Part shown: piece after piece, positions 1-38,200 of the stretch
Layout of the letters: each line of letters opens with the position of its first letter
Numbering within the stretch: position 1 is the first letter of the stretch
Assembly: GCA_964572255.1 (NCBI GenBank)
Contig: CAZNEE010000003.1
Span: forward strand, 118,539-182,538
DNA length: 64,000 bases
DNA from: an uncultured Planctomycetia bacterium
Lineage (GTDB): Bacteria > Omnitrophota > Gorgyraeia > Tantalellales > Tantalellaceae
Reading direction: 5' to 3'
Position numbers and translations under genes: made by a program
The notes under the pieces: model-generated
What the model was told of the DNA's origin: nothing
Seen by the model: the letters and a program-made list of their open reading frames with translations, nothing else
Databases searched by the model: none

Positions 1-3000
1 ATCAAATTCGCGGCTTTGAGTTCCCTGCCTAACAGGAATTTTTCCCCCATCAGCTTCGCCATTTTTACCAGAAAAATATGCATTCTCTCATCCATATCCT
101 CAACTTTTTCTTTGGCGTCCTCATCTACAAGGCCATTGGCCAGATCGTTGATTTCTCCGTTTTTATATGTCCCCGCCAAAACCGCGTTTATTATCTTCGT
201 ATTCCATTCTTTGGAGAGCCAATACTCGAACGCCTTCTTGCAATTCTCAGCTATCAGCAGGAACCACAGGCCTGAAAGAAAAACAAAAGTGCTTAATAAG
301 GCCGGAACCGCGGTCAATGCCCCCGGTATCATAAAAGAAGCCGCTAAGGAGATCACAAGACCCACAACGCCTATAATGAGCGATCTCTCCGACCACCTGT
401 AATAAGTCCCTATAGTTATGCCTTCCTCATATTGATCATATCTTTTTATTATCTCCTTTGCGTCGGCAGGAGAAAGACCGATCCCTGAATCCAAAAATCT
501 CAAAAACATCTTATTCTTGAATTTTGTCTGGTCATTACTGCTCGCAAATATTTTCTGTAACTTCCCGAGAATAAGAGGATTATTCCTTGAATCCTTGAGC
601 ATGTTCAGGAACACACTGAGAGCTTTCAAGGTTTCTTCGCCGGCCTGCTCATTCTTTTCAATATCCTGAATTATGAATTTTATGGCCTCCGGGATGGAAT
701 CCGGATTTTCCCTTCTCAGATCTTCTCTCACGCCCGGATCGAACCTGTTCACGGCGGTATTTGCGATCCTTATTATTGATACCAGCTGCTTCATTTTCTC
801 GGGATTAATTGACGACTGCATACGGATGAGCATCTCATCTTCCTCGACTTTTCTGCAAAATTCCCTGTAAGTGCCGTAATTGAAAAGCAGCATCCTGACA
901 TCTTTCTTTATCTCTTTCGGAAGACTGATATCAGTAGCTTCCAGCATTCTTACCGCAAAAGTGTTCACCCCGAATACTGACCAGACAACTTCTTGTTGTA
1001 ATTTATTAAGTTTCCTGCGGGGTGTTTTCAGTAATTTAGCGATCTCTTTACAAACGCGCTCAAATTGTTCGTCTATAGGAAGCCCCTCAGCGCCTATTTC
1101 TTTGATCAACGCTCTCATCGCTCCCTTTATATGCCATACTTCCCCTTTTTGGGCAGGATATTTTTTCTTAAGCGCGGCTCTGATCTCCAGAAAATCATTC
1201 CTGTGACTTCCCATTCTCGGGCCAAGGCCCAGATGATGCACAAAGATCGCAAGTTTTAAGGTAAGTATGTCCTCGTTCTGGAATTCTTTTTCTTCGGCCA
1301 TCCTTCTTGCCATTTTTTCGGCAAGTTCGGCTTCGAGCAGAACATGCGGATACAGGTCCACTAGCCCGTGACTGTTATATAGTTCCTCTATCTTGTTTAT
1401 TATCCCTTTTCTCACGCCCGAGGGGGCCGCGGGAGCGCTTTTTCTGAGAACACGAGTGTGATCTATGCGTATCTTATCGGTAATATCCTTGTATATCCCC
1501 CTGCTTTCTTCCGTCAGAAGCGTTTTCTGATCAAAAATATTCGCAAACCTTCTTATCCCCAATCTCCCGCCTTTTACCCCGAGGTCCCCGTTCCTAAAAA
1601 CATAAAGGTTGGTTTCTTCCCGCCCGGATATGGCAAATTCCATCTTTCTTAAATTTCCGTAATCCTCGCGCATCTCATGATTTAGATCTTCGTATTCCCA
1701 TTCTCTCAACGAATATCTTGTTTCCATGTCACGGCTTATTTCCCATTCGAACTTCTTTATGGAAGACATGTTCTTATTCAAAAACAACTGCGCCAGATCT
1801 CTTACTTCATCAAGGTTTACACGCGAAACACATGTATATATTTCAACATTTTTATCCTTGCAGTGTTTTTTGACCAGGTCCAGCGCCCGCTCCAGCTTCT
1901 CAGACTTTTTCTGTACCTTGAAAGACACCTTATTCACATATTTGGTCATTTTTGAACTGATTATGTTCCATTTATCCCCCACCTCATCAATATTTTCTAT
2001 AAATCCGGCGAACGAAACAACTACTGTCATTTTCTTACTTGCGTGTCCGAGAAGCTCCTTCAGGGCATCCATCTTTTTCTCATCATCGAGCAATCCTCTT
2101 GATATATCGAAAATGAAATTTACCCTGCTTACGCCTTTTTCGGCCAATAGATCAACCATTTTTATTTCGCTTGCCGGGTCTTCCCTTATACTTGAAAGAT
2201 CAAAATACACGCTGGGCGGCAGCAATCCGGTTCCTTCGGCTTCATAAAAATTTCTTTTTATTTCACCGCATATAGTCCCGAATTTTTCATGCTTCTCACG
2301 AAGAACGTTTATGTTGGAAAATATTCTTTGGATATCATCGAGTTTGAACTTTTTATAATCACCTTTTCTGTAGAACGGCCAGATCCCGCTCATGGCTACA
2401 GGGCCGACTTTTTCCACGCTTTTGGAATCGGTAAAATATTTCGCATGGCCATGCCTTTTCGGAAAAAAGTAAACCGTCGCTCTTTTTTCCTTATTAACCG
2501 TAACGATCTTATCGACAGTGTATCCGTTGTCTCTAAAGATCTCTTCAACGTCATAGCATCTGGTACTCAACAAATTAATATCACCGGTATTATCAACGCG
2601 CCCGTTGACAGCGAAAACGGCAATAGGATTCTCTGTGTCCGGATATCCTTTTACCGTAAATATTACATCATCTCCGTCACGCTCAGTACATAACGGTTCC
2701 AGTTCGTACTTTTTAATAGGAAGCGGATCGTCCAGTTTAAACAGGTGAAAATGCAGATTCTTGGTATTATCGGCAGCCAACTCGTTCGTCCAGGATAGTG
2801 TTTCCCCGGATAAATTCCTTAATATCTCAAACGCGTCACGGTAATGTTCCCTTTCAAATGAGTTCTGCGGGATATTCTCCTGTGTTTCAACCTCTACTTG
2901 CGAGAAAAAGATCCCGTCCTCTTCCAATTTGAAATGATAGCCTCCCCTGTCCCTCTGTTCGGGTGTTTCACTTGTGTTCCTTCTGCGCGCAGGAGTATAT

Positions 3001-6000
3001 TGCTTGGTCAGAAATGTATCGCTGATGTTTTCGCTTTCCCAACGATGTTCCCTGAGTTCCGCTTTTTTGCCCTTTTTGCGCACCTTTTTGCTTATTTTTC
3101 CCCTTAGATCCTGCAGGTCCTTTGCCAAACTTGCAAAATCCCCCTGTTTTATGACTTTCACCTCTGTTTTGAGTCGATTTCTTTTTATCAAACGGGCTAA
3201 AGTATAAAAACCCGGCATCAGGAAAAACATGCCCCAGAATTCTTTTTTAAATAATTCATGGAGTATGATCTTGCTTAGATCTTTTTCGCGGACGATATTC
3301 CTGATAGCGTCATGATACTCAATACTTCCGTCATGCTGTCTTTCAGCTATTGCAGTAATTAAAATCTCATCGCCGGAGAAAGCTTCATCTCCGGGCGTGG
3401 GTGGCACATACCCCCTCAAGGCCATTCTGGCCAATTTTCCCAGGCCTAAAAATCTGCCGGCCGAAACAGCAAAAAAAGCTCCCAAAACGGCGAATCCCGT
3501 CCAAATGCCATAATACAGAACATGTGCTTCCACCATCAATCCTATAAGTATACCGACCAGTGCGCCCGCAAAACTGACCGCGCTCAGCATGGCCATGATC
3601 TTACCCCACAATGAAGCGCTTTCAACGGTGAACGGATGGGCCGGCGGGATCTCCGGAGGATCTTTCTGCCTCTGCGTTTCCATGAATTTTATGTCTTCTG
3701 GAAGAAATTCACTGCAATGACGGGCATAAGCAGCTAAAGATAATAATTGTCCGTCCTTTTCCGATATCAATTTTGCTAAAGCCTCCAAGGCCCTTCTGTC
3801 TTCAATACCTTCTTCGTAATATTTTTTCTCAAGAAACTTGAATGAATCCTCAAAGGATTCAAAAGGTCTTCCTTCATGGAACAAATTCATCTTATCGACA
3901 TTGTTGCCGTTTTCAAAGACATCGGCCGTAAAAAGTATCGTTAACAATAAACCTAACTCTTCGGGAGTAATGGGCAACTTGCCCCTGGAATCATCTTTTG
4001 ACGCGAAAAACTCTGAAGGAAATTGATGGTACTTTATTAAAAGTTCGACTTCCAAAGGCATTTTAACGCCAAGAGACTTTATGTCTTCTGCTGAACGTGT
4101 CCCATGGTCATAAAAATCTCTTGCTACATTTTTCTCCTCACTGGTTAATGCGCCGCCTTTTTTATTCTCAACGAATCTGTAGAAATCACTTATTGAAAAA
4201 AATGCTCTTCTGCCTTCCTTTGAAAGTTTTTTGCCGATATACCTTTTAACGTCATTGACTACCGCTGGGTCGAGAACTTTTCCGTCATGAACTTCCCCGG
4301 CAGCCATTAATATTTCTATCAACCGATCAGACAATCCTATTCTTCTGGCGATCAGCTCCGCCATTCTTGAAGCACGGGCAACATGTTCCATATGAAAATC
4401 TGTCTCTTCCGTTTGGATCGACTCTAAGCATAACTCTAACCGTTGTTCACGGTTCATTTGCATGATATCGTACTTTCCTTTAGCAAAAACAAGAAGTGAT
4501 AGAAACCTGTCTCTTCCCTGAAAGGACCTGATTATGAACTGACCATCTATATTCATCATGGCATCTGCACCGTTATCAAAAATGATCGCATCGGTAATGC
4601 CCATCTTTTCCAATCTTTGCTGCGCTTCTTTGAATGTTATGCCGATCCGGTTCGACTTGCCTTCAACGATTATCGAAACAAGATTTCCATCTTTGTCTAT
4701 AGCGCAAATATTATGGGGGTTTATGCCTCTTTTCAGGCCTATGGTAAGTTCGTTATTATCTTTATCAAGAAAGTAAACGCCGTATTTTACTTCACTTGCC
4801 GCTTCTGCTTTAATATAATGTTTTTCCTCCCGTAAATTCTCATCCAGCTGCTTTATCTGATCATCTGTCAGAGGGGCCTCTCTTTCTTCAAGTTTTAAAG
4901 TAATGAGTTTTTCTTCTATCGCCGGCACAATAAGATCTTTTATTACTTTCCCTGTTTCATCATAGAAATGGCTTACTCCGAAACTGATCTTCCCGTCAGG
5001 TATAAACGGAAAATCAAGATAATGCCTTACGTCATAATCGTGTTCGTAATGCTCGGCTAAATCGTACGGCCGGCCATTCTTAAGGATCCCGATACCGGAA
5101 TTAGTTGATACAACTTCACCTGTTATATCTTTTCCGGTACTCTCTTCTATGATCCTTTCACCTCCAGTAAACCTGACTTCTTCTATGCTGATATGTCCGT
5201 CTTTCCATATTACCAGTGACGGATATACCCGGCTATTACCGCTATAGATCAGCTCTTTTTCAGCTTCAACAGCATGAAGTCTTCCGTCAACATAAGAAGC
5301 GAGATGCGCATTCGCAAGAATGTTACCGTTGCCGGTAAACCCGATTATCTCGAAATTAGGATAGTCTTTTCTGAATTCCTCAAGATGTCTCTCGATATCC
5401 CATACATCTTTCCTGGCATTTTCATAATCCGGAGCTATATCATCAACATCTTGTACCTCTCCGCCCTCTAACTGATATTTAAAATGCATCGTGGCTTTAT
5501 CTCTTAACATTCCCCAGCTTCTTGCCATATTTTTCTGAAAAACCGGATAAGCTCTGGCTTCTGAAGGATCATATTTAGCCACTGCCATACGTGTTTCAGG
5601 GCCGCGTTCACTGGTAAAATCAACAAGCGCAACCGGTAAATGTACTTTCTCGTAAGCTTCATCGGTTATCTCTAATATTTGACCGTACTCATGCAGAGTT
5701 GAGTCTGTTAAAGCACTAACGGCTTCATCCGTCATATATTCACTAATGTTGATGCCGGATCTTTCAAGATCATCTCTTATAAAGGAAAAAGAATCCTTAG
5801 GAGATTCTTTTTCCTTTTCTTCCTCAGCTTTCAGCCTCCTCACTTCAACTCTTCTTAAATAATCCGATCCCATCTCTATTGAATCAACAGCCGTAAAATA
5901 TATATACATTCTTTTTAATAATTTTCTTATTTCAAAATCTCTCTCGTGACCATAACCAAACACCGTCTCATCTATCACATCAAAAGCTTTCTTCTTGTCC

Positions 6001-9000
6001 CTAAAAACGCTTTGCTTAACAGGCTTTTTGTCTTTATCTTGAATGGTAAATTCATCCAAAAGGATCTTTATCTCGGCTGGGACAACTATATTATTACTTG
6101 CAAATATCTGGAGGGTGTTATCCGTCGGTTTTTCAAGCGCAGCCATCTCGGGGCTACCATAAGAGCTTCCGATCGCATGAGCGATAATAAATTTATGGAA
6201 GATATTTTGGAAGTGTTCAAGGTCATCCTGGTTTTCATCTTCCCTTCCAAGCGGCCATATAATATCGAACATCCTGATAAGTCTGGTTATATGGGTTCTG
6301 TTAAGTTCATGGGGAATGATCTCCAAAAGCTCACTGTCATTAATATCCATGATGTTCCGACGCGGTTGTGTCCCCGGTTTCCCTCTCCCCGGCTCACTCA
6401 TATCAACAAATGAAAGACCGCTAAGCAGGGATAACAATAAAAGCGTCCTGGAAGTGCCGCCCGGCAGCATGGCAGCTTTATCGATCGATTTTTCTTTGAC
6501 CTCGTAATATTCCGGATCCGTGAGCCATGACAGCATCCAATTTATCACTTCCGAATTATTTCTCGGATTAACGCCTTCAAATATGGCTATTCTGATAAGC
6601 AAGGATCTGTACTGCTGGGGATATGAGACTCCGATAAGTTCCATCTTGAATGCCTCAAGAAGTTTTCCGTCGGAAGAAGTGAAATTAGCGAGCATTTTAA
6701 AATTACTGTAATGAGGTGATCTGCGGTTGTACGACGCGGCGCAATGCTCGAAATATTCTTTTAAGCCGGAGAAGCCCTTTTGTTCCGCGATATATTTGCG
6801 GTACTCGTTCTGGATCGAATACGCCTCATATTCATTCTGCATCTTCCGCGCAATGAACTTTTTGAAGTCTTCACGAAGTTTTTTGCTTTCATCGGTTTTC
6901 TGTAAAAATTCCGACATCTTTATACCGGCGATTTTTTCGCCCATTTCGATCTCTGCCTGAGCACGTTTGTTCTGATGCGGAAGCATATGAACTATTTCAT
7001 GCACGATGGCCGACTCGATCTCAGGATCTGAATATTCGCCGACGAATGCGGCATTGATCCGAACTATATCACCCCTATTTTCGTCGGTCTGCAGTATATA
7101 GGGCTTAGAGGGGTCATTAACGACTTCCAAACGGGATTTTTTAAACTCATATAATAGTTTGAGAATTTCCTTTGTATGTTTGGAAAAAGTCCAGCCGTCT
7201 TTCTCGATATGATTTATGGCATTACCGGTAAGTTTTAATATCCTCCCTTCAATAGGTGACGGTCCGGCCGGTTCAGCTTCTTTAATTTGTTTTTCGGAAG
7301 TTTTCTTGATTTTTTGCGAAATATCTATTTTTTTATCTTCCGAGCTTTCTTTTGATATCTCGGCAGACGGTTTTACCGGTTCTTGTGATATCGGTCTTTT
7401 CGCAAAATAAAATACCAAAGTTGCGATGATGCTGATCAAAACGAACGCAACCGCCATGACAGCTATTGATATTTTTCCGCTTTCACCGGATCTTTTCTGC
7501 GAAACGTCATAATATTCAGGGTCTGATAACCACTCGAACAGCCAGTTTCCGAAAACTGCCGGATCACTCTTGCCTTCAAGAGCAGCCGCAAAATAAACCG
7601 GTTTTCGCGTCCCGGGTGCGATCGCTTGCTCGAATAGATCTATTTTATATCCCTCAGGTAAAGTCCCCCCCGGATATACTATTGAAAGAAGATTGGCATA
7701 ACCTTCCTTGAAGCCCGGATCATTTGTTTTCGATCCGAGATATTTTAAATACCCTTTTAGATCGGAATAACCTTTCGCCTTTGCCTGTTCGTATCTGTAC
7801 CTGTTCTGTATGCTGTAAGCTTCAAATTCATTATGAGTAGCTACTGCTGCCGCTATTTTTATGCTTGTTGAGATCCTTTTGGTGAATCCGTCAATATTTC
7901 CCGAAAGAACAGCCTTAAAATACCCCAGAAAATTCCGTATGACCCCTAATACCCCTTTATTCCTATGTTTATCAAATGCCTTCTGCCTCTTGACCTGCAC
8001 CTTAAGAAAGTGTACCATCTCATGTAAAAGTATCGCTTCAATATCCTCTTCGGGTATATCCCGCAAAAGAACCGGATTTACTCTTAATTCCCTGTTTTTT
8101 GCCACCGCTTCTGAATGAGCTTCAAAAAGCGCATTTTTTATAGTAGTTTTGCCCGGACTTAAGAACGGATCTTTGATGAAATCCTTAACCAGTTCAAGGA
8201 GTTCCTGGCGGTGTTCAAAATCAGGAAGCCAGCCATCATGTTCAATATGGCCGGCAATATTCCGGGCTGACTGGACAATAACCTCCTGCACATGTTCAGG
8301 AGGGGATCTCTTGGCGCGGTAGATCATATAGATCGCGCCTGTTATTAATATTATAATACCTATATAGAGGACTGCCGGATTGGTAAAGTAAGTTGAGATA
8401 TCACTTTTAACAAAAGGAAAGGCAAATACGCCTAATGCCCCGGCATCAGATGGCCCCGCTCTTTTATCAGGTCCTTCCCCTTCGGGCCCCTGCTCCTTTT
8501 CTTCATCTTCTTTTACCCCCGTCATCGGCGTCACTTTGGACATTTTTTTATTCAGGATGCTGTTGAAAAGTTCCTCCCCTAATATCCTGTTCATTCTTAT
8601 CAGCGCTTTTCCGGTAACTATCTTATTGAGCTCTTCATTTGACTCATCAGTGTTGGATAGTTTAAGGTCTTTAAGCATTTCAGCAACGGTTTCGGCGTCG
8701 GTAAATTCAACTTCAGTCTTGAGTTTGGGGACCAGTCCCTGTATAACGCCGGGTACGATCAAAACTCCGTGCTTTTTGTAAAGGTAAATACTGAATATTA
8801 TCGTCTTATCAAAGCGCGCGTGGTCGCCGCAAATGCTGACATCCAGATCCCTGGCTTTTGCCGCTTTGACTATTTTCTCCAGAATTTTCAGCATTTCATT
8901 GTCAAAATGGCTGTCCTTAAGATCGTGTCTCGGCAGCTTCTTCACATCGGAAGTGAGGTCATTAGAGCCTATACTTAAAAAACTCAGGCTTACGAATTTT

Positions 9001-12000
9001 TGATCCAGGATGGCATCCAGATCTTTGATCACTTCTTCCGTTTCGACCATTATCCCCACGGGCATCCCGTTGAGAACTTCTTTTTCGATCGCGGAATACT
9101 TCTTAACTATCTCCTCTTTTACTTCGTCGATCAGCTTGCCCAAAAATTTCATGTCATCAACGGTCTTGATCATGGGGATCATCATTTTTAAGTTTTTATA
9201 TCTTGACTGAGCATAAGCGACAAAAATGGCCATTATTTGTATTTTTAAAACTTCTCTCCCCTCCGGTTCTTTATAGTAACCAAACCCATAAACCCCGGGA
9301 ATGTCAGGTAATGCAATACATTTTTTATCATGCTCCTTATCAAAGGTCCTTATAGCAACCTCTTTATCTGCGACATTGGCAACGCTAAGATATACCTCCC
9401 TTTGTCTTTCAAATTCCAGAAATGCTTTTCTATTAAATGCATATTCCGTTCTGACAAGAGCCACCCCATTAGCTCCGAAATCATTATAAAGCTCTTCAAC
9501 AATATCAGCTGCACCCGGCCTCAAATAACCGTTATCATTTTTTCTTGCATGAGCGGGTAAAATAATGTTTCCGTAAATGGACACCTCAACGCCGTCTCGC
9601 GTCTTAGCCACTGTTCTCTTTTTGCGGAGTTCACGTTCCTTTTCGACATAATAATCCTTCATCGTCTGGCTGGTGATAACCTCGCTCACCATATCCCAAC
9701 CTTTTTTTGTCCTTGGATTCCCCGCCAAAAATTTAGCTTGTTCCGTCTTTGTCATGCTCACACTGCTGATAGCCGCAGGTTCCCCTGTTGCGCAAAAATC
9801 ATCAAAGATCACCTCGGGCAGATCCACAAGCAGCATCGCGCCCGCCGCCGTGGCTAAAATAGCGACATGCTCCCGCATTGACCCGTGGCAGCTGACAAAA
9901 TATTTTATCCCGTACCTCTGCGTCATCTTCCTGAGTATGATCTCATCCCGGACCATGTCCCTGGAAACAACAACGATCTCCCTGTCTTCCTCCCTGGCCT
10001 GTTCGACTATTTCCCTTAAACCTTCTATGGCTACATCTTCTATATCAAGCTCGACAGAGAGTTTATTCACGACCCTTTCCGCTAAAGCCGCTTCATCCCT
10101 TCTTCTCTGGCCCTCAGCTATGGGATACTTCTCGCTGAGCCATTCCCAGATAGCGAAACGCGCGGTATAATTATGTTCTTCCATTTTTTTCTTGGCGGAT
10201 TCTATCGCTTCCGCCGCCAGTTTGACCTCATTTATATGCCCGAAGACATCATTTTCCCGCGCTACGGAAAAACAATTCACGAGTTTCTGCTGTTCCGTGC
10301 TTATATCCTCATCGGACACTCTATACCCCTCAGCCAAAGTTATTAATATCCTTGCGAAGATATTCCTTATACTAGTGCCCTTGTCATGTCCGATGGATAA
10401 GCCCTTAAACACATCATAAGTCCGCTTCATCTGGTAAGTAACGCCGGGGTTGCCTTTTTCAAGTTCAAAATTCAACCCTGAGATCAGGCTAAGCAGGTTT
10501 TTATCCTGATCCGTATTAACGAGGCCGACTGCCTTCCTTATCTTCTCCTGGAACTGATATTTTAAGGGTTTAAGTATACTATCTAAATGTATGCGTTCCC
10601 GGTCAATATTCTCTTCATTTATCTCGTACTCTTCGGGCATGATACTTTCATCGAAATGCAATTCTCCTTCCCGGACCGTTTCATAATTAAAGATAACCGC
10701 GTTCCAAACACCGCCCGGTATGCCGTTTGAATTGCATCTTTCAAACGGTTCAAGATGATAGACCGAAGTCAGGGACAGGGCCTCTTTGTATGATCTTTTT
10801 GTCCTTTCCAGGTCAACGATCTCGAAAGATTGCAGTAATCTTTTACGCTTATTTTCCGACAGCACCTCTCTCGTCTCCGCGTTCTGCTGCAGGTGATAAA
10901 CGGAGATCGCCACATCATCGTATACCATGCCTCTTAAGTGTTCATAGTAGATGTTAAGTTTTTTAAGCTTTTCGAGTATGTAATTTTCACAGCCTGTCCT
11001 GTTCTGCGTCGTTACGATTATCCGCGTGTAAGATTCGCCGTTTATCTCCACATCGTTGACAACAGTGAAATAAGGTTCCTTTTTCTTGGCTTCTTCTTTA
11101 CTCGTCTTTGCATCTTCAAGCGTGATCTGTATCAGTGACCATATCGTAAAAAATTCATCATACAATCTCTCTTTATGCCTTATGGTCTCCCCGTCATCAA
11201 AAAGCGATTTCTCTATACACGCATCGATAAATTCAGGCGAAACAGGCGTTACGTCCTTGTAAGTCTCCCCGTACTCTTTGGCTATATCGTGTATGTACGT
11301 TCCAAGAAGTGCATATTCGCCTCTCGCTCTTAGTTTGATAAGTTTTTTTACATCTTCCGCGCTGGTCGGCTCTTCCAGAATGACTTCTTCTTCGGCTACG
11401 TCCCCTTGATCTTCTTCCGCAAACTGTTCGCTCTCTTTTTCTTCCGGGATGGCCGGTTCTTCAAAAACGGACGGTTTTTCCTCATCCGGCGCGGCAGCAT
11501 CAACTTTTTCCTTTTGCGTGAATTTTTCTTTAACTTCCCCGATCACATCCGAAGCCGCATCCGCTACTTTCTTGAGAAAACCTTCATGCGCGCTGTTCTT
11601 CTCGATAAGTTTCACTTCACCTTCACTGACAACATAGATATTCCCGTCAAAATCAACCCTGCAGGTCTTGCCGCTTTCATCCGCCTCAGCCTTCGACCGC
11701 CCGAGATACAGCCTGAAGATCTCCGGATCGATGCGGTCATATTCAACTGCCGTGAGCCTTTCTTTGGGGATGCTGTTGTACGCCGCTTCATAATTATCAG
11801 CCCAGTAATCAACTACGGAATTAAGGTCTTTACCTTCAAGAGCGCATTTTCCCAAAGCATAGACTATGAGTTCTTCCAGCGCCGTAAAATCTCCCGTATC
11901 AAGATAAGCCTCGAGAGCAAGATCGTACTCCCCGGCTTTTACGAGTTCCCTGTAGGGGCCCGTCTTTTTCGTAAGAATGGCAACATACGGACGTATGTTA

Positions 12001-13412
12001 TCGCCGGAAAACTTCGGCATCAGAACAAGATAAGAAAGGCCTTTCTCTTTCATGAGGTCCGTGAGCCCTTCCGAGTGGTGTCCTCCGGAAATAAGCGCAG
12101 CAACACGTTTCCTCTCACGGCGCATCGAAGCTACGGTATTTGCGAGCATAGCGCTATTACGTTTTTCGGCCAACTCGTAGAACTTTAAGGCCTTTTTCGC
12201 TTCTTCGAGGATGGTTTCGGAAAGACCGTCAACCTTTATTTTTCCGATCATTTCGCGAAGATCCTCTGCCTCGCAATCTGTAAGCTGTATTTGGAAAAGG
12301 CTCTTCAAAAGCTCGATAAAATTTGTCGCCTCGTATAATTCTCTTTCCTCTTTACCGGTGAAAAGTTCGCTGAATACTTTCTCTTCCAGCTGATCAAGCT
12401 CATTTTGAAGGCCCGTTACATCAAGACTATGATATTTCCTTGTATAATCCACAAAGCGTAAAAGCTCTTTATATTCGCCGCAATCTACGCCTCTTTTTTG
12501 CGCAAAATCCACAAGCCAGCCGTGATAAACAGCCTGATCGATCCTGCCCTTTTCAAAATAAAGGGATTTAATGGCTATTTGTTCCAGGTCTTCCTTGACG
12601 GCGGATTTTGAAATGCGGTTTATTAAAAGCGTTCTTTCATCTGTAGCTTTTGAAAAATCGACCTCTTTCTCCAGATATACCGAATCGATGAACGCTTTTA
12701 TATTTGGATAACTTTCGGTGGGGATCCCTTTTTCCTTACAAAGCTTCTCAAGAAAATCCCAGTAAACATCAAAACTTATTTTTCCTTTTCGGTGGAGGCG
12801 CGATTTAAACACCATTCGGCTGAGTTCGCCGGAATATGTCTTGTCCTCTTTTTCCTTTAAAGCGGCGAGCAGTTTGTTCAAAGAAACAAGAGATCCGCGG
12901 TTTTTCCGGAATATTTCTCTGAAAACCTTAAGGTTCTCCTGATATAAACTGTTATCCTCGACTCCGTAAAGAGCAATATCTTCATCCTGTGTTGCAGTAA
13001 AAAACTCACCTGCCGATATTTTCCCTTCTTTCATCAGGTAATCTGCGGTCTCCTCCCTCAGTTTTTCATCGGGAAGAGTTTTAAGCAGCGATGTATCGAT
13101 ATACCCCGAAGCGCCTTCAACGGCAACAACGCGGACATCGTATTCGCTCATGAGGTTCTTTAAGATCTCCACTATGGAGTACTGCGCGGAAAGCGATGAG
13201 TGGCAATCCTGGATATTGATGATCGTCTCGTTCTTGCCGAGCAGGCCTTTTTTTTCGATATCGGCAAGATTTTTGGGGATATTAAAATTTTTGTTTATTT
13301 TTGGGTAGGAAGAGATATCACCGGCAGCCCATACGATCTGCTGGTGAAAAAAGATGAGGGCAACTATGGTTGCCGTGACCTTAAGAAATATATTATATCG
13401 TCTTATCCCCAT
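1..13412 (-). CDS. Giant multidomain membrane protein, 3'-truncated by the window edge (>=4470 aa in window). It has an N-terminal signal anchor and a domain paralogous to the 7013-aa neighbour. It contains a PEP-utilizing-enzyme module, two HExxH zincin-like modules and an HD domain.
   Basis: The gene is missing from the supplied ORF track because no stop codon lies inside the window. I translated the minus strand by hand from the ATG at 13412-13410, which is the first ATG after an in-frame TAA at 13418-13416. The translation begins MGIRRYNIFLKVTATIVALIFFHQQIVWAAGDISSYPKINKNFNIPKNLADIEKKGLLGKNETIINIQDCHSSLSAQYSIVEIL. This aligns residue-by-residue with residues 34-130 of the 7013-aa ORF (MADWRRRHVFFIKCVSVLVIIFFLHQQIGW...IIQIQDAHASLSAQYSIADLL). 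Internal landmark codons at 9887, 8024, 7001 and 4289 are all in frame with 13412. No minus-strand ORF >=60 aa is reported in this frame anywhere in 1-13412, which fits one uninterrupted frame leaving the window at position 1. The plus-strand ORFs here are short, S/L/P-rich antisense artefacts. Confidence 0.65.
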   Translation of the reverse strand, partial: MGIRRYNIFLKVTATIVALIFFHQQIVWAAGDISSYPKINKNFNIPKNLADIEKKGLLGKNETIINIQDCHSSLSAQYSIVEILKNLMSEYDVRVVAVEGASGYIDTSLLKTLPDEKLREETADYLMKEGKISAGEFFTATQDEDIALYGVEDNSLYQENLKVFREIFRKNRGSLVSLNKLLAALKEKEDKTYSGELSRMVFKSRLHRKGKISFDVYWDFLEKLCKEKGIPTESYPNIKAFIDSVYLEKEVDFSKATDERTLLINRISKSAVKEDLEQIAIKSLYFEKGRIDQAVYHGWLVDFAQKRGVDCGEYKELLRFVDYTRKYHSLDVTGLQNELDQLEEKVFSELFTGKEERELYEATNFIELLKSLFQIQLTDCEAEDLREMIGKIKVDGLSETILEEAKKALKFYELAEKRNSAMLANTVASMRRERKRVAALISGGHHSEGLTDLMKEKGLSYLVLMPKFSGDNIRPYVAILTKKTGPYRELVKAGEYDLALEAYLDTGDFTALEELIVYALGKCALEGKDLNSVVDYWADNYEAAYNSIPKERLTAVEYDRIDPEIFRLYLGRSKAEADESGKTCRVDFDGNIYVVSEGEVKLIEKNSAHEGFLKKVADAASDVIGEVKEKFTQKEKVDAAAPDEEKPSVFEEPAIPEEKESEQFAEEDQGDVAEEEVILEEPTSAEDVKKLIKLRARGEYALLGTYIHDIAKEYGETYKDVTPVSPEFIDACIEKSLFDDGETIRHKERLYDEFFTIWSLIQITLEDAKTSKEEAKKKEPYFTVVNDVEINGESYTRIIVTTQNRTGCENYILEKLKKLNIYYEHLRGMVYDDVAISVYHLQQNAETREVLSENKRKRLLQSFEIVDLERTKRSYKEALSLTSVYHLEPFERCNSNGIPGGVWNAVIFNYETVREGELHFDESIMPEEYEINEENIDRERIHLDSILKPLKYQFQEKIRKAVGLVNTDQDKNLLSLISGLNFELEKGNPGVTYQMKRTYDVFKGLSIGHDKGTSIRNIFARILITLAEGYRVSDEDISTEQQKLVNCFSVARENDVFGHINEVKLAAEAIESAKKKMEEHNYTARFAIWEWLSEKYPIAEGQRRRDEAALAERVVNKLSVELDIEDVAIEGLREIVEQAREEDREIVVVSRDMVRDEIILRKMTQRYGIKYFVSCHGSMREHVAILATAAGAMLLVDLPEVIFDDFCATGEPAAISSVSMTKTEQAKFLAGNPRTKKGWDMVSEVITSQTMKDYYVEKERELRKKRTVAKTRDGVEVSIYGNIILPAHARKNDNGYLRPGAADIVEELYNDFGANGVALVRTEYAFNRKAFLEFERQREVYLSVANVADKEVAIRTFDKEHDKKCIALPDIPGVYGFGYYKEPEGREVLKIQIMAIFVAYAQSRYKNLKMMIPMIKTVDDMKFLGKLIDEVKEEIVKKYSAIEKEVLNGMPVGIMVETEEVIKDLDAILDQKFVSLSFLSIGSNDLTSDVKKLPRHDLKDSHFDNEMLKILEKIVKAAKARDLDVSICGDHARFDKTIIFSIYLYKKHGVLIVPGVIQGLVPKLKTEVEFTDAETVAEMLKDLKLSNTDESNEELNKIVTGKALIRMNRILGEELFNSILNKKMSKVTPMTGVKEDEEKEQGPEGEGPDKRAGPSDAGALGVFAFPFVKSDISTYFTNPAVLYIGIIILITGAIYMIYRAKRSPPEHVQEVIVQSARNIAGHIEHDGWLPDFEHRQELLELVKDFIKDPFLSPGKTTIKNALFEAHSEAVAKNRELRVNPVLLRDIPEEDIEAILLHEMVHFLKVQVKRQKAFDKHRNKGVLGVIRNFLGYFKAVLSGNIDGFTKRISTSIKIAAAVATHNEFEAYSIQNRYRYEQAKAKGYSDLKGYLKYLGSKTNDPGFKEGYANLLSIVYPGGTLPEGYKIDLFEQAIAPGTRKPVYFAAALEGKSDPAVFGNWLFEWLSDPEYYDVSQKRSGESGKISIAVMAVAFVLISIIATLVFYFAKRPISQEPVKPSAEISKESSEDKKIDISQKIKKTSEKQIKEAEPAGPSPIEGRILKLTGNAINHIEKDGWTFSKHTKEILKLLYEFKKSRLEVVNDPSKPYILQTDENRGDIVRINAAFVGEYSDPEIESAIVHEIVHMLPHQNKRAQAEIEMGEKIAGIKMSEFLQKTDESKKLREDFKKFIARKMQNEYEAYSIQNEYRKYIAEQKGFSGLKEYFEHCAASYNRRSPHYSNFKMLANFTSSDGKLLEAFKMELIGVSYPQQYRSLLIRIAIFEGVNPRNNSEVINWMLSWLTDPEYYEVKEKSIDKAAMLPGGTSRTLLLLSLLSGLSFVDMSEPGRGKPGTQPRRNIMDINDSELLEIIPHELNRTHITRLIRMFDIIWPLGREDENQDDLEHFQNIFHKFIIAHAIGSSYGSPEMAALEKPTDNTLQIFASNNIVVPAEIKILLDEFTIQDKDKKPVKQSVFRDKKKAFDVIDETVFGYGHERDFEIRKLLKRMYIYFTAVDSIEMGSDYLRRVEVRRLKAEEEKEKESPKDSFSFIRDDLERSGINISEYMTDEAVSALTDSTLHEYGQILEITDEAYEKVHLPVALVDFTSERGPETRMAVAKYDPSEARAYPVFQKNMARSWGMLRDKATMHFKYQLEGGEVQDVDDIAPDYENARKDVWDIERHLEEFRKDYPNFEIIGFTGNGNILANAHLASYVDGRLHAVEAEKELIYSGNSRVYPSLVIWKDGHISIEEVRFTGGERIIEESTGKDITGEVVSTNSGIGILKNGRPYDLAEHYEHDYDVRHYLDFPFIPDGKISFGVSHFYDETGKVIKDLIVPAIEEKLITLKLEEREAPLTDDQIKQLDENLREEKHYIKAEAASEVKYGVYFLDKDNNELTIGLKRGINPHNICAIDKDGNLVSIIVEGKSNRIGITFKEAQQRLEKMGITDAIIFDNGADAMMNIDGQFIIRSFQGRDRFLSLLVFAKGKYDIMQMNREQRLELCLESIQTEETDFHMEHVARASRMAELIARRIGLSDRLIEILMAAGEVHDGKVLDPAVVNDVKRYIGKKLSKEGRRAFFSISDFYRFVENKKGGALTSEEKNVARDFYDHGTRSAEDIKSLGVKMPLEVELLIKYHQFPSEFFASKDDSRGKLPITPEELGLLLTILFTADVFENGNNVDKMNLFHEGRPFESFEDSFKFLEKKYYEEGIEDRRALEALAKLISEKDGQLLSLAAYARHCSEFLPEDIKFMETQRQKDPPEIPPAHPFTVESASLWGKIMAMLSAVSFAGALVGILIGLMVEAHVLYYGIWTGFAVLGAFFAVSAGRFLGLGKLARMALRGYVPPTPGDEAFSGDEILITAIAERQHDGSIEYHDAIRNIVREKDLSKIILHELFKKEFWGMFFLMPGFYTLARLIKRNRLKTEVKVIKQGDFASLAKDLQDLRGKISKKVRKKGKKAELREHRWESENISDTFLTKQYTPARRRNTSETPEQRDRGGYHFKLEEDGIFFSQVEVETQENIPQNSFEREHYRDAFEILRNLSGETLSWTNELAADNTKNLHFHLFKLDDPLPIKKYELEPLCTERDGDDVIFTVKGYPDTENPIAVFAVNGRVDNTGDINLLSTRCYDVEEIFRDNGYTVDKIVTVNKEKRATVYFFPKRHGHAKYFTDSKSVEKVGPVAMSGIWPFYRKGDYKKFKLDDIQRIFSNINVLREKHEKFGTICGEIKRNFYEAEGTGLLPPSVYFDLSSIREDPASEIKMVDLLAEKGVSRVNFIFDISRGLLDDEKKMDALKELLGHASKKMTVVVSFAGFIENIDEVGDKWNIISSKMTKYVNKVSFKVQKKSEKLERALDLVKKHCKDKNVEIYTCVSRVNLDEVRDLAQLFLNKNMSSIKKFEWEISRDMETRYSLREWEYEDLNHEMREDYGNLRKMEFAISGREETNLYVFRNGDLGVKGGRLGIRRFANIFDQKTLLTEESRGIYKDITDKIRIDHTRVLRKSAPAAPSGVRKGIINKIEELYNSHGLVDLYPHVLLEAELAEKMARRMAEEKEFQNEDILTLKLAIFVHHLGLGPRMGSHRNDFLEIRAALKKKYPAQKGEVWHIKGAMRALIKEIGAEGLPIDEQFERVCKEIAKLLKTPRRKLNKLQQEVVWSVFGVNTFAVRMLEATDISLPKEIKKDVRMLLFNYGTYREFCRKVEEDEMLIRMQSSINPEKMKQLVSIIRIANTAVNRFDPGVREDLRRENPDSIPEAIKFIIQDIEKNEQAGEETLKALSVFLNMLKDSRNNPLILGKLQKIFASSNDQTKFKNKMFLRFLDSGIGLSPADAKEIIKRYDQYEEGITIGTYYRWSERSLIIGVVGLVISLAASFMIPGALTAVPALLSTFVFLSGLWFLLIAENCKKAFEYWLSKEWNTKIINAVLAGTYKNGEINDLANGLVDEDAKEKVEDMDERMHIFLVKMAKLMGEKFLLGRELKAANL
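4000..4420 (-). other. HD-domain (metal-dependent phosphohydrolase) within the 1-13412 giant gene.
   Basis: I verified the translation against DNA at 4201-4400. It reads HMEHVARASRMAELIARRIGLSDRLIEILMAAGEVHDGKVLDPAVVNDVKRYIGKK. This fits the HD-domain pattern H..V...A..IA..lGl......l..AallHDiGK. The HD codons are at 4289-4284 and in frame. Confidence 0.45.
6500..7470 (-). other. TM-anchored HExxH zincin-like module B, a tandem paralog of module A.
   Basis: In order, the module has the TM helix ISIAVMAVAFVLISIIATLVFYFA, then HIEKDGW, then DPEIESAIVHEIVHMLPHQNK with the HExxH codons at 7001-6987 and in frame, then QNEYEAYSIQNEYRKYIAEQKGF, then WLTDPEYYEV. It has the same order and spacing as module A about 930 bp upstream. 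Confidence 0.5.
7480..8400 (-). other. TM-anchored HExxH zincin-like module A (putative metallopeptidase).
   Basis: In order, the module has the TM helix AVLYIGIIILITGAIYMIYRA, then HIEHDGW, then RDIPEEDIEAILLHEMVHFLKVQV with the HExxH codons at 8024-8010 and in frame, then HNEFEAYSIQNRYRYEQAKAKGY, then WLSDPEYYDV. Confidence 0.5.
8750..10000 (-). other. PEP-utilizing-enzyme module (phosphohistidine swivel domain plus PEP-binding TIM barrel, similar to Enzyme I / PEP synthase / PPDK) inside the 1-13412 giant gene.
   Basis: I translated it by hand and re-verified against the DNA at 8815-9672. EIVVVSRDMVRDEIILRKMTQRYGIKYFVSCHGSMREHVAILATAAGAMLLVDLPEV matches the swivel consensus ..GGRTSHAAIIARELGIPAVVG. 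The His codon is at 9887-9885. GVALVRTEYAF matches GVGLYRTEFLF. VAIRTFDKEHDKK matches VIVRTMDIGGDK. NLKMMIPMIKTVDDM matches KLRIMFPMIISVEEV. VGIMVETEEV matches IGVMVETPAA. SFLSIGSNDLTSD matches FFSIGTNDLTQY. VSICGDHA matches GMCGELAGD. The Cys codon is at ~8825. Confidence 0.6.
11600..13412 (-). other. N-terminal signal anchor plus the ~560-aa domain paralogous to 33000-34760.
   Basis: See above. I verified the translation against DNA at 13201-13412. Confidence 0.55.
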
Positions 13413-13555
13413 AACTTATTGTTATCCCCATAACATTTATGTACTTTTTAAAGTTATTAGCTAATTCAAAGTGTAAAAGTCCCTTCATGTTTTTCTTACT
13501 TACAGAAAGACATTAAAGAGCTAACAAGCTTTTTATTTATTTAATGACTAATAAT

Positions 13556-13816: not shown

Positions 13817-16800
13817 TTATAGCCTGATGATCACCTCCTCGTATCTCTTCATTTCTTCCATCAAGTTCTCGAAGTTGATAGGTTTAATAGGTTCAAATAT
13901 GAGCCAGTTCTTATACCCCTCTTTTGGATTTACCTCGCCCAGGCTTTCTGATATAACTCCTTTATTCGCAATGATTTCCAATATAGCTACAAGTCTTTGC
14001 GAAACCACGCCCTCACCTACCATCTGGACAAAAGTGGGCGCCCTGTCAGCCTGAATGATCCTCTCATCCGCGTCCGTTTTTACAAGATTCGCGATATCGC
14101 CTATGGCTAGCGCATCAGGATTTTCTACGATATCGAGTTCGGGGAATGTGCTCCGGGCTAATTCAAGCGTCCTTTCGAGGGTAAGATCTTCCTGTGTAAT
14201 TAAACGTATGTTCCCCCTGTCCAACACGTCGACTAATCCTGTTTCCTCAAGCATCATATCGAGATTCTTTTCCGTTATATTGGGGTCAAGCACCCTTACC
14301 TGTATGAATCTGGACGCTTTTTCCTTGTCAAGCCCCATTGATCTTATCGTGTCAGCGATAAGCCGCATCTCGCCGACATTTCTTGCGATCTCGCTGATAT
14401 ACCTCGGCTCGCCCTCGACCAGGCCTGTTGCGGCATATGCCTTTGTCCGGTCTGTAGTCCTTATCCTTGCGTAAATATCCTTATGCCTTATATCTATCGT
14501 GAGCCGGTAAATACTTTGCTCGCTTAATTCCATGCTCTTTATGATCTCGATGCCGCCGATGGACAGCTGGTGTACCAGGTCTCTCAATTCAAGCCCGGAC
14601 ATGGAAGGAACTAACCCTCTTATCGCGCCGACATTCATGCTCAATATCAGTTCTTCCTTTTGCCCCGTAAGGGTCTTTATCTTTGCGTCTATTTCATCTT
14701 TCTCTTCCTGGGTCCTCCGTATCATGCTCCTGACCTGCTGTAATCTGAGTATTTCGCGGTTGATTTTATCCAGCTTCTTCATGGATTTGGAAGTGAAAAC
14801 ATCCGCGCGAAGTTTGTTGGCCGTTCCTATAATAAGCTCGGTTGCCTCTTTCCTATTGTATCCGGCAATAGGGGTATCGATAAGAACGACCGCGTCTATT
14901 CCCTCATCTTTCGCTGCTTTACTAAGTTCTTCGATCATGGTTTCAGTTTTACCGGGCATTACTTCTACAACGCGTATAGAAGGATCGCTGCGTTCTATCC
15001 TTTCAATAACGACCTCATCTACTGTTCCTTTTAGAATCCCGACCACAATATCGGGTTTGGGCGCTGCTTTTCCCTGGAAGATTTCTCCAATCATTGTGAT
15101 CACTTGATATGCCAGAATTATTAAACTGGAAGCAATAACTGTTGCGCCCATCTCGGTAGGGCTGATAAACGGTAACGCTCTTGCTATAAAAGATTGGATC
15201 GCTATATTCAAAGGATAATATGCATTGAATATTATCGCCGTGCTTGCGAGCAAAAAGCCTATGCCGAAAACGGTCATAAGCATTACAATGTTACCTCTGC
15301 CGCTTATTCCCCTTGGTGCGGGCGGGACTTCCGGCGGTATTGCCGGTATGACCCTGGCAAGAAGAGGTCTTATTTGTCCTTCGATTATCGACTCTCCGAG
15401 GGAAGCCGAGATCTCAAGACTTTTTTCATCATCGGTCCTCCTGGCTACATTACGTATTGTCATGTCCCTGGGATCATCCGTGTGATATGCCACATAATCG
15501 CTTTCATTCCTGCCTATGTATTCTATCCTGAACGGTTTGCCCCGCAAAGGATCGCCGAAATATTCCCTTTCGCTCTTGCGGAAATGAAATTTTACGTTAT
15601 CCTTCGCAAAGAAAACAGATTCCAGAATATTGCCCGGAAAATCGACAATTTCCATGCCTGCGGCAGCGCGCCTTCTATTCAGCTCGAGTTTATCGTCCTG
15701 GGTAACATACCTGTATTCGACTTCCTCTTTTCCTTCAGCGTCATATACCACTACCTGGTCAAGCACCCAGTCCGTTATTACCGGTTCCTGTAGTGACGCG
15801 GTATGATCGTAAATATCGGTAAGGACATAAACCCATTCCTGTCTCTTCTGGTCCTCAGAAATGCCAGCAAGCTCTTCCTGTCCTGTTTCCACCTGGTAAA
15901 CACCTTCATATTCTATTATTATGTAAAGGTCTTTTTTGCCGATAGCTTTTTTAACCCTGTAAGTAAAATATTTTCCTTCCTGCGGATTGCAGAATAATAT
16001 TCTTCTTCCGTCCTTCGCGTATTCGGAGATCTTCCCGTCCGGTTCGATGATCCTTTTTATCTCGCGCGTATCTTCATAACGCTCGGTTATCGTGCCGTCT
16101 TCCGCGACCTGGTAAACCGGAGCCGGTTCAGCTTCTTGAGGAAGTTCCGGTTCTTCAGGCTCTTTCGGCCTGCCTCTGCCGAACAAGAACATACCTCCAT
16201 AGATTATTCCGACAAATATTGCCAATGTCAGTAATATATAAAAAGAATTGATATTGCCCGCGGAATTTGACAGAAAACCCGGCGGGCTGAAACCTTCGCC
16301 CTGTGTCAACCCGAACAAAAATACCGGCGCAATACCGAATAAAGGTTTAACAGGCGGTTTTACCACCGGGGGCACCACAACCGGCGGCGCAATAATTTCT
16401 TCCGCAAGACTTGCCCTCGGTACGATGCGCGGTACGCCTATACGGACCTGCCCTGAAGTGGCCTTTATAAAATTACGGTTTACCCTTATAACGAATCTCT
16501 TGGCTCTGGCCGGATTGAACGCGCTGCCAATAGGCTTTTCGGGTTTTATCCTTAAAGTGTTCAATTTCTCAAGAAGTTCTCCTTCCACTATTTCAAATTT
16601 GGATTCTTCGCCTCCGCTATAACCGGGCATCTCAATAATGGTCTGCGGCCTGTTCTCGTCATCGTAAGCCACGATCATTATGGTATGCCCCGCCAAATTT
16701 TCCCTATAGGCTTCCGGAATGAAAAATTCAAAAACGAATTCCCTGCCCCTCATGTCCACGGGTTCTTTCAGCTCGAATTCAAGTTCCGCAAGGTTTTCTC

Positions 16801-35261: not shown

Positions 35262-38200
35262 TTAGAGAGCAATAGCTGTCTTCGTGATCGAATTAACAAA
35301 TCTCATTATGTTGTCCATGATATCGATCGCGCTTATCGGCATTAAATTGAATTTACCTCCGAGCATACTTCTGATCAGATCCATATCCTTACATGCCAGC
35401 GCAAGACCGGCCGGCATTTCATTTACCCTGTCCTTGGTGGCCATCCTTACCATAACGCTCATAATAGGCATTGCCGCTAATAGAGCATCCTTCCCTTTCA
35501 TGTTTTCATCATCGGTATTCGCTATCAGCATATTAAAAAGCTCTGATGCTTTTGTCACCTTATTACTATGGTCACGAATTGCTTCCAAGTCCTCTGTGTT
35601 CTCGGCAACGGCAATCGCTACGTAAGCCGCATCTGAATCGAATCTAAGGTCAGGGCGTACTTTCATCTCTTCAATACGCTCGTTAACTACTTCAACTATG
35701 GTTAAGCCTTCCTCAAACTCGACTATCTCGACTTCAGTGACCGGTATTCCCGTATCGGCAATAATGCCTTCAACCTTGCTTGTCATGCCTTTATCAACCA
35801 CTATAATGGGTCTAATAAGTTCTATTCCATATGCCTGTTTAGCCACATGTCTGATCATGTCTTCGTTAAACAGACGATCGCCCCTGGCATCAAACGCCGG
35901 GACCACGGTCTTCTCGAAAAGCCCTGCTTTATTAAAGAGTTCTGCAAGCGCAATTATCAGCTCTACGGGACTAGTTGCTGTTTCTATCTTACTTCGGAAC
36001 TTATCTATTTCTATTCTTCCGTCTTCAATGGCCTCCATGATCTCAGGTCTGGTCAGTGCCATGGCTATTCCGTCAATAAATTCGCGCGGCAAGCCCGTAT
36101 CGGAAACTATCTGCGGTATAAGTGTTGCAAGACCGGCTGGTGAAATGATCTCAGGCATTTCCATCGGAGCCCTTTCTATTATCTTCTCTATAGCCGGCAG
36201 GTGTCTTTCAAGCTCAGCCTTCTTTGTAGCGAGTATTACCGCTTGTCTATCCTGCATAAGACTTGAAAGTTCATTAAGCTCGTCGATTGATAATGACTGA
36301 ACGGCTTTATCTATAACTATATCAGTTGTTTCATGGAACATGAAACCAGCTTCAGTATATCTGGTTCCCTGTACTAATACCTTAGCCAACATATCAAGAT
36401 CGCCCGACTCGATCTGCCTTCTTATCCCGTTATTTAATATAAGAAGCTTACTGTTCAGGGCCTTCCTTGCACCGTTCCTTAAAGTAACCGCAAGTGAACC
36501 TTTCACATCATCATATTTTGATGTAATAGTATCTGTCGTAAAGAGCGCTTCGTTTATCCCGCCCGCTCTGGGTACTACACCTGTCTTGAGCCCAATAAAC
36601 ATATCAACAAGATCCCTGTCAAATATTTCGGGAACAATGTCTCTTCCGACCTCTTCAAGAAGTTCTCTTTGTGCTTGCCGTAAAGTAATGATTCTTCCCT
36701 TTAAGTTGTCCGGCAATCTCTCAATGAATCTGTCATCGACACTGACAGATTCAGCCCCAATATATCCAAGTCTTGTTATTCCGCGTTTAATATCGTCGCT
36801 TAGTTCTTTACCCTGCTGCACTGCGGTGCCCAAAAACTGCTGCGCAAAGAACGCATGTCCGACCGGCTTTACGCCCACTTTAATTCTTTCAGAAACAAAC
36901 TGTGCGCCCTTTGAGAGAACCGGAAGAACTGCTGCAGTTCCTAATGCGATAAGGGCGACTAACGCAACATTCAATCCGGCAGCCAGTGCTGTTAAGCTTA
37001 ACACGGAAATCGCGCTAAATACCATGAGTCCTCCGACTTGAGCGAATCCTGCTTCAGTCGGCGGAACTTCGGCTACTGCCTCTTCAGCCGGTTCACGTTC
37101 TAATTTTTCTATTGCACTTTCCACTCTTGCCAATTGCTGTCTGATATCACCGGCTTCGGTCATGATGCTCTCCTGTAAATTTCGCAGATCCTGTTCAGTT
37201 TTCTCCGGAAGCGCATTTAATTCTTCCACTAATTCATCTCGATTGCTTTGCATTTTTTCAATCTTTGGCTTTTCAGTTTCTAAAGAAGTTTTTAATGCTC
37301 CCAGCCTATCAATCTGGTCTTGTGGTACTGCCATGTTATTTCTGGCGTAGTGCTCCATTGCACCCTGCAGCTGATTAAATTCTGCTACATTAGCGTTATA
37401 AGATCTTGTCGCAAAATCAAGTGTAACTTGAATGTTTTGTATTTGTGTCCTTAGTGCTGCTTCGGCTTCTTTGGCCTTATTCATTAATGCGTTCTGCTGA
37501 TCTTTAAATTTATTTTCCAATCTTTGGATCTCATTCTGCAGTTCTTGACGTTTAGCTTCTAGCGATTCAATGTCGCCTTCAGGAGCCTTCCGTTTGGCGA
37601 TGGATATTTCAACAAGTTTATTTAAAGCAAAATTTCTTACATTTTCAGACTTCTTGGTATCTTCGTACACTTCTGTAAAGAAATCTTCATTCTCGCTTAA
37701 ATAATTCACGCCCAGCTCTGTTGCTTTTATGGCTTCCATAGCCTTTGCATGCATTGCTCCGGATAATTTTCTGTCTGAAAGCAGGCTTACAATAGCCTCT
37801 TCATTCCCGAGCTCGGCAAGTTCGATCTTCAACCCTCTGGCCTTTGTTGCCTGCACTGACGGGATATTAAATGCAGCAGAGAACCAATCAGCAACGGATG
37901 ATGTAGTCAGACTCTTACCGGCTTTCTTACTTAAAATACCGCTCATCAGCGCAGCGCCGGCCGGAACTATTATTGTCCACGGTGATACGGCAAAAACCGT
38001 AAGGCCGGCGAGGGAAAGCAATCCTTTACCGGCGATCATCGCGCCGATGCTCAGCGCCATTTTCGGTGTCATTTGTGCAATATAACCGAAAAGACGGCTA
38101 ATTGTCTTAAGTCCCCTTATTTGAGCCAGGCTCTGGGAGAACCTTTCAACTCTACCGGTCCTGGCATAAATATCACTTAAGGCAAGTTTGGCTTCCTGAA

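Follow-up and report, generated by a model that had tools for sequence, protein, structure and literature searches.

Two tandem membrane-anchored modules in a giant Omnitrophota protein are related to M48 peptidases and minigluzincins

The substrates of the M48 peptidases HtpX, Ste24, Oma1 and BepA are polypeptides that are associated with the membrane or are being translocated (PMC6925264, PMC8423444), and BlaR1 and MecR1 of family M56, which are membrane gluzincins, cleave themselves and their repressor (PMC6925264). In the giant proteins of Omnitrophota, built-in C39 and S8 peptidases have already been invoked for cleavage (bioRxiv 10.1101/2023.11.21.568195), and these domains are proposed to cut the giant proteins into smaller products (bioRxiv 10.1101/2023.11.21.568195; 10.64898/2026.06.07.730766). 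These preprints describe further peptidase content besides, but mention no M48-like or zincin module. Here we describe a tandem pair of such modules in g1, a giant open reading frame (ORF) of an uncultured bacterium of the Omnitrophota, which lies on a stretch of 64,000 nucleotides (contig CAZNEE010000003.1 of assembly GCA_964572255.1, positions 118,539 to 182,538) that we call the window. The two modules are paralogous, they are anchored by transmembrane (TM) helices, they are homologous to the cores of minigluzincins and M48 peptidases, and both keep the H-E-H-E tetrad that is conserved in their family. We consider it rather probable (roughly 0.6) that each module is a membrane-tethered gluzincin-type zinc metalloendopeptidase domain, with M48 (HtpX, BepA, Ste24 and Oma1) and the minigluzincins as its nearest relatives, and that it cuts near the membrane.

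The question behind this is whether giant Omnitrophota proteins act whole or are cut into working parts, and the module is a third candidate cutter beside C39 and S8. Like the C39 and S8 domains, it is built into giant membrane-associated proteins; unlike it, they belong to unrelated catalytic classes (Cys and Ser). The module also offers defined residues to mutate, namely E1799/E2140 and E1863/E2195. For protease classification, this is a family in which a minigluzincin-like core is combined with a Glu ligand of the M48 type and with a new C-terminal subdomain. Judged from sequence comparison, the modules are best seen as forming a new gluzincin family of the M48/minigluzincin type, one that is very rare and has an N-terminal helix and a C-terminal helical subdomain of its own; they are probably catalytically active. 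The features of g1 that concern the modules are as follows (aa, amino acid).

3..13412, minus strand: giant ORF g1, host of both modules (open frame 3..13415, ATG at 13412; more than 4,470 aa visible)
8319..8381, minus strand: TM helix before module 1 (aa 1679-1699, NPAVLYIGIIILITGAIYMIY; hydropathy scan, mean Kyte-Doolittle value 1.8)
7485..8318, minus strand: module 1, soluble M48-like gluzincin domain (aa 1700-1977; hidden Markov model (HMM), BLASTP paralogy, AlphaFold and family alignment)
8229..8249, minus strand: HIEHDGW of module 1 (aa 1723), at the end of the N-terminal helix
8010..8024, minus strand: HEMVH of module 1, within LLHEMVHFL (aa 1798-1802; predicted zinc ligands H1798/H1802, predicted general base E1799)
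7803..7832, minus strand: NEFEAYSIQN of module 1 (aa 1862), in the long "glutamate helix"; E1863 (nucleotides 7827-7829) is the predicted third zinc ligand
7503..7523, minus strand: DPEYYDV of module 1, within SDPEYYDV, which closes the C-terminal motif WxxxWLxDPxYY specific to the family
7401..7469, minus strand: TM helix between the modules (aa 1983-2005; Kyte-Doolittle value 2.53)
7281..7400, minus strand: charged low-complexity linker from the TM helix to module 2 (aa 2006-2045; read from the translation)
6480..7280, minus strand: module 2, soluble M48-like gluzincin domain (aa 2046-2312; BLASTP and two-module HMM)
7191..7211, minus strand: HIEKDGW of module 2 (aa 2069)
6987..7001, minus strand: HEIVH of module 2, within IVHEIVHML (aa 2139-2143; predicted zinc ligands H2139/H2143, predicted general base E2140)
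6807..6836, minus strand: NEYEAYSIQN of module 2 (aa 2194); E2195 (nucleotides 6831-6833) is the third zinc ligand predicted from column conservation
6498..6518, minus strand: DPEYYEV of module 2, within TDPEYYEV, the C-terminal motif
6402..6452, minus strand: weaker hydrophobic stretch after module 2 (aa 2322-2338, SRTLLLLSLLSGLSFVD; Kyte-Doolittle value 1.25), which may be a third membrane segment of g1

The two modules are 28% identical across 285 residues (BLASTP E 2e-27), and their likeness is thus due to paralogy and not to chance, as the initial annotation of this DNA had proposed. All of the motifs that it listed were found exactly in the minus-strand translation, and a strongly hydrophobic helix precedes each module, in agreement with its count of one TM helix per module. 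The spacing was the point that needed correction, because equivalent motifs are 996-1038 bp (332-346 aa) apart and not about 930 bp. Across the three giant ORFs of the window (21,063 aa in all), HExxH occurs only twice, compared to 0.29 occurrences expected by chance, and the two occurrences are at homologous positions. A candidate for a third, degenerate copy near aa 3385 of g1 (ILHELFKKEF, after the next pair of TM helices) was rejected, because the two-module HMM found nothing there; in g2 and g3, the two remaining giant ORFs, the same model gave no significant match. There was no plus-strand ORF of at least 100 aa within 6500-8400.

Relatives of the modules are very few. An exhaustive HMMER scan of 1.84 billion cluster representatives with the two-module profile (cut-off E<=1e-3) found only 25 related clusters or proteins. 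Word-indexed homology searches with module 1 or with the 27-sequence family alignment found no relatives, and neither did locus searches of the GTDB genomes and the JGI metagenomes, from both of which the genome of the window itself thus appears to be absent. Many of the relatives are giant themselves (7,834, 5,154, 4,063, 4,042, 3,981 and 3,720 aa), and the module is present in tandem in some of them, with four copies in P0001 and two in P0003. The clusters with a named source are three metagenome-assembled genomes of Candidatus Omnitrophota (P0002, P0004 and P0018) and one unclassified "bacterium F11" (P0013); for two JGI entries only product names are given. In P0022 and P0013, the N-terminal domains have named relatives that are mostly from Elusimicrobiota. 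The module typically adjoins TM helices in giant multi-enzyme proteins, and in most homologues it is preceded by a hydrophobic segment at a distance of up to about 80 aa. In the tree of the copies, module 1 groups with P0002 and module 2 with the copies in P0001, the nearest relative of module 2 being the second copy of P0001 (35.7% identity). This agrees with an ancient duplication of the modules, which is also indicated by the lack of any DNA-level repeat between them.

The placement of the family relies on profile comparisons. A profile of 27 sequences (A2) was searched against 177,635 distinct PDB sequences, and the best matches were projannalysin (4jix, E 1.8e-6) and selecase (4qhf, E 5e-6), followed by weaker matches to BepA, proabylysin, HtpX and another M48 protein. 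In HHalign, A2 was homologous to the catalytic core of M48, with a probability of 89.6% (E 1.9e-6) against the E. coli M48 profile (BepA/LoiP/YcaL) and 71% (E 3.7e-5) against HtpX. In these alignments HEMVH was placed on H136-E137-I-S-H140 of BepA and on H139-H143 of HtpX. NEFEAYS was placed on N-E201-Q-E-A-D-R of BepA, and the posterior support for this pairing was good both in the helix and in the "G(Y/F)" turn that comes after it. Glu-201 is the third zinc ligand of BepA (PMC8423444). The E-x-(E/H)-A pattern was also found in LoiP, YcaL and HtpX (E222 in HtpX), and the NE(F/Y)EA glutamate, which the initial annotation had put forward as a third zinc ligand, is therefore supported in this predicted role by the alignment. 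The same annotation had called the region gluzincin-like and had left it unplaced, perhaps as a new zincin clade. It is indeed a distinct family for which Pfam has no model, but it can be placed, nearest to M48 and the minigluzincins; and its proposed peptidase fold is borne out by profile searches, since the region matches the minigluzincins, the M48 profile and, just above the cut-off on module 1, SprT-like. No model of Pfam, NCBIfam, PHROG or PADLOC covers the module, the PHROG searches giving only sub-threshold noise and PADLOC nothing.

With M48 (BepA, HtpX, LoiP and YcaL; Ste24/ZMPSTE24 and Oma1) the modules have in common the strand and the active-site helix "xSDxExExxLxHExxH". Some 60-80 residues downstream, both have an N/R-E-x-E/H-A motif whose first Glu provides the third ligand in M48 and is predicted to do so in the modules; this motif reads NEFEA in the window, NEQEA in BepA, QEAEA in LoiP, KESEA in YcaL and REFHA in HtpX. 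Both also have a helical insert between the helices that carry the metal-binding residues, predicted ones in the modules, and both are membrane-associated. Unlike M48, the modules have an N-terminal HIExDGW helix and a C-terminal WxLSWLxDPxYY subdomain of their own, they are found as tandem copies inside proteins of 4,000-7,800 aa, and the alignment contains no counterpart to the His-switch/plug region of BepA. The match to the minigluzincins (projannalysin, selecase and proabylysin, 4jiu) lies in the N-terminal half and covers the sheet, the helix that backs it and the HExxH helix. However, minigluzincins are soluble proteins of about 100-110 aa with His as the third ligand (PMC6925264, citing Lopez-Pelegrin 2013), and they stand alone, whereas the modules have about 270 aa, a TM anchor and a conserved Glu at the third-ligand position, with no conserved His after HExxH. 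Like the modules, M56 (BlaR1/MecR1) has a membrane-embedded gluzincin core with a helical insert between HExxH and ExxxD, and it undergoes autoproteolysis (PMC6925264). Unlike M56, the modules are without a penicillin-binding sensor domain, of which none was found in g1, and only 2 of the 27 members had a weak match to Peptidase M56 (PF05569, E 0.0043).

The predicted structure is consistent with this placement. AlphaFold modelled module 1 with a predicted local distance difference test score (pLDDT) of 87.4 and a predicted template modelling score of 0.88 when the family alignment was supplied, and with a pLDDT of 70 when only the two window sequences were used; the sheet region was poorly predicted (pLDDT about 55-64). 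The model contains helix 37-49, strands 58-60, 66-69 and 76-80, helix 90-102, which carries HExxH, and helix 142-181, which carries E1863/E2195. In order, there is a helix ending in HIExDGW, a backing helix, three strands, the HExxH helix, two inserted helices (about 55 residues) and the 40-residue NExEA helix. Five or six further helices follow, ending in WxLSWLxDPxYY, and these form a C-terminal subdomain of about 90-100 aa. As modelled, the order of the elements is that expected of a gluzincin with an extra C-terminal subdomain. The HExxH helix after a backing helix and a small beta-sheet, with H-E-H kept in about 25 of 29 copies, is the pattern of a zincin (clan MA), and the Glu of the downstream helix, at the third-ligand position in 27 of 29 copies, is that of a gluzincin.

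The conservation of the predicted catalytic residues was counted in 29 aligned domain copies. The first His of HExxH is kept in 25 copies and the Glu and the second His in 26 each; in NExEA, the first Glu is kept in 27, the second Glu in 24 and the Ala in 26. Conservation of HExxH in homologues was the check that the initial annotation had proposed, and the complete tetrad (H-E-H and the first Glu of NExEA) is present in 23/29 copies, including both window modules. The overall identity to module 1 is 19-29%, and preservation of the tetrad at this divergence indicates selection on catalysis. Other near-invariant positions are the Q and R of HExxHxxxxQxxR, Y1873 and both Trp of WxLSWLxDPxYY (W1958 in 28/29 copies and W1962 in 27/29). 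The Trp of HIExDGW is kept in 16 of the 24 copies aligned at that column, the other 5 of the 29 having a gap.

Because M48 and M56 enzymes act at the membrane, we suggest by analogy how the modules might work. Zinc would be bound by H1798/H1802/E1863 in module 1 and by H2139/H2143/E2195 in module 2, and peptide bonds would be hydrolysed with E1799 and E2140 as the general bases. As in M48 and M56, cleavage by the modules would fall in extended stretches of polypeptide near the membrane, and the charged linkers of the megaprotein itself would be the most obvious substrates. Such cleavage could mature the protein into smaller enzymes, or it could clear away copies that have stalled or been misinserted. 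The modules are thus plausible candidates for cutting or policing megaproteins at the membrane, and it is by analogy only that we infer a role in megaprotein processing or quality control. Since a single TM helix separates the modules, they could face opposite sides of the membrane. It is possible, though unlikely, that they sit on opposite faces of the cytoplasmic membrane as polyprotein "maturases", which would cut the juxtamembrane linkers of g1, and perhaps those of g2 and g3, and free enzymes on each side. If this were true, it would be zinc-protease polyprotein processing of cellular megaproteins, analogous to that of viral polyproteins.

Several observations weigh against the assignment of the modules as membrane-tethered zinc endopeptidases. 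Neither of them matches Pfam M48 (PF01435), even below the gathering threshold at E<=1. Foldseek gave no significant whole-domain match in PDB and BFVD, and the template modelling score to selecase was only 0.45, normalised to the target; the top rows, which were not significant, included selecase, the only peptidase there among solved structures, along with several phage "metallopeptidase" models and SprT and M48 models. The Asp of the M48 motif ExxAD is not conserved in the modules, unlike in M48; its column varies among the members and holds Tyr in each of the two window modules. The charges flanking the TM helices of the window are ambiguous for topology, and the neighbours of the 1,140-aa homologue P0022 are housekeeping genes, which are uninformative on function. 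Finally, six of the 29 copies are without the complete tetrad: the fourth of P0001 (REAYR), the first of P0003, and those of P0002 (QNMVR), P0021 (HAMSH), P0023 (KQAIH) and P0005. In P0005, the change is conservative, Glu to Asp at the third-ligand column, and it is the sole loss from the tetrad there. In P0002, an Omnitrophota protein related to g1, the degenerate copy is the only one. The existence of such copies means that the fold can persist without catalysis.

This raises the possibility that the modules are pseudo-proteases, in which the zincin fold is kept and the old substrate groove binds or chaperones polypeptides, or serves as a scaffold of the megaprotein, with no hydrolysis. One of the degenerate copies is that of P0002, a protein that has other blocks of g1, and this copy groups with module 1. 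The most conserved residues include the non-catalytic W1958, W1962 and Y1873, and BepA has a protease-independent chaperone-like activity via its edge strand (PMC8423444). However, the four catalytic residues are all kept in both window modules, as they are in most of the family, and most degenerate copies stand together with intact ones in a tandem array (P0001 and P0003). As both copies in the window are intact in sequence, a pseudo-protease role appears less likely for them, and we consider this explanation unlikely overall.

It is also conceivable that the modules are active zinc hydrolases whose substrates are external, such as envelope proteins of prey or host or the peptides of peptidoglycan, and not the megaprotein. 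This would fit the predatory or host-dependent lifestyle proposed for Omnitrophota, whose giant proteins are proposed to attack the cell walls of prey (bioRxiv 10.1101/2023.11.21.568195). In six homologues (P0004, P0006, P0010, P0015, P0018 and P0019) an Arg-Arg motif lies N-terminal of the hydrophobic segment, an orientation that would place the module outside the cytoplasm. In the window, however, the TM flanks give no sign of an outside location, and the rest of g1 is made up of cytoplasm-type enzymes, for example a PtsI-like domain that utilises phosphoenolpyruvate (PEP). Furthermore, it is established that the characterised relatives in M48 and M56 all act on the membrane-associated proteins of their own cell (PMC7950410, PMC6925264). 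An external substrate therefore seems doubtful to us, and cleavage of polypeptides near the membrane of the cell itself is the reading that we prefer.

Membership in the SprT/Wss1/Spartan proteases, with a function in the repair of DNA-protein crosslinks, was suggested by Pfam, in which SprT-like (PF10263) was the only family above threshold on module 1 (26.5-26.9 bits, cut-off 25.6), and by HHalign, in which the probability against E. coli SprT was 48%. SprT and WLM domains are described as minigluzincin-like (PMC4559962), and this explains the match, which covers only the strand and the HExxH helix that all minigluzincin-like zincins have in common (profile positions 40-79 of 108). Module 2 reached 13.4 bits. 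Among the 27 members, SprT-like was matched in 9 and Peptidase_M48 in 5, always over the HExxH region, and the matches to Peptidase_M48 were weak (best E 0.0019). DNA-protein crosslinks are the targets of SprT-type enzymes, which rely on a third His and in many cases carry a zinc ribbon. The modules show none of these traits: there is no conserved third His after HExxH (H1817 is present in module 1 only) and no zinc ribbon or other Cys cluster, the domain is anchored in the membrane, and its conserved downstream ligand is predicted to be the Glu aligned with E201 of BepA. On these grounds we rejected SprT membership, which we regard as very improbable. That HExxH and the Glu motif are a chance pattern in a helical domain with no relation to peptidases, as the Foldseek result might suggest, is effectively refuted by the significant minigluzincin and M48 matches in the PDB-wide profile search and in HHalign, by the conservation in 23/29 copies and by the excess of homologous HExxH sites over expectation.

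The window carries three giant ORFs in a row on the minus strand. The frame of g1 runs off the start of the window, so that its C-terminus lies beyond it, and the other two are as follows.

13817..34858, minus strand: g2 (7,013 aa), directly upstream of g1
35265..63998, minus strand: g3 (more than 9,578 aa visible; N-terminus off the window), upstream of g1

No Pfam match was found in g2 at E<=1e-3. In g3, SecA_DEAD and P-loop_SecA domains were found near the C-terminal quarter and a pentaxin/Laminin-G domain near the visible start; a SecA_DEAD domain is reported to be typical of the giant genes of Omnitrophota (bioRxiv 10.1101/2023.11.21.568195). Together with the named relatives of the module and the blocks common to g1 and P0038, this points to Omnitrophota as the most probable source of the window. 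The Pfam matches of g1 are PEP-utilizers_C (aa 1309-1536), SprT-like (aa 1765-1809) and NAGPA (aa 2889-2963). The first of these (about 8808-9489, minus strand; E 2.7e-29) is a PEP-utilising domain like that of enzyme I of the phosphotransferase system, lies in a PtsI-like region that starts at aa 1068 and closely precedes the first TM helix and module 1; TIGR01417 matched the region with E 6e-27, far below its equivalog cut-off. The NAGPA phosphodiester glycosidase domain is at 4526-4750 on the minus strand (E 3.5e-8), and the translation also shows several HD-like histidine/aspartate motifs at about aa 3000-4300.

The N-terminus of g1 (aa 5-580, about 11670-13400, minus strand) is a conserved "head" domain with invariant IQDxH..AQ and GGxH motifs and weak Pfam matches to ChaN/Tiki (PF04187) and TraB. 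It has 129 homologues, mostly proteins of 700-2,000 aa from Elusimicrobiota and Omnitrophota, and the C-terminal enzyme domains of these are highly variable (DUF89, NUDIX, NAGPA, HEAT and kinases). A functional tie between the head domain and the M48-like module was considered and rejected, because the module was present in 0 of 118 further head-domain homologues.

Canonical motifs resembling signals of twin-arginine translocation (Tat), (S/T)RRxF(L/I)K followed by a hydrophobic stretch, were found deep in four of the giant proteins (P0001 aa 928, P0002 aa 731, P0006 aa 1355 and P0018 aa 1902) and in none of the three ORFs of the window. In P0006 and P0018 the motif directly precedes the M48-like module. 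An internal signal of this type would be sensible only after upstream cleavage or internal initiation.

The block directly downstream of module 2 (g1 aa 2342-2605; 5601-6392, minus strand) was 43.6% identical in the Omnitrophota proteins P0002, P0036 and P0038 and had no family assignment. Several blocks are common to g1 and P0038, which has 6,978 aa, and their order is different in the two, which indicates shuffling of domains between giant proteins.

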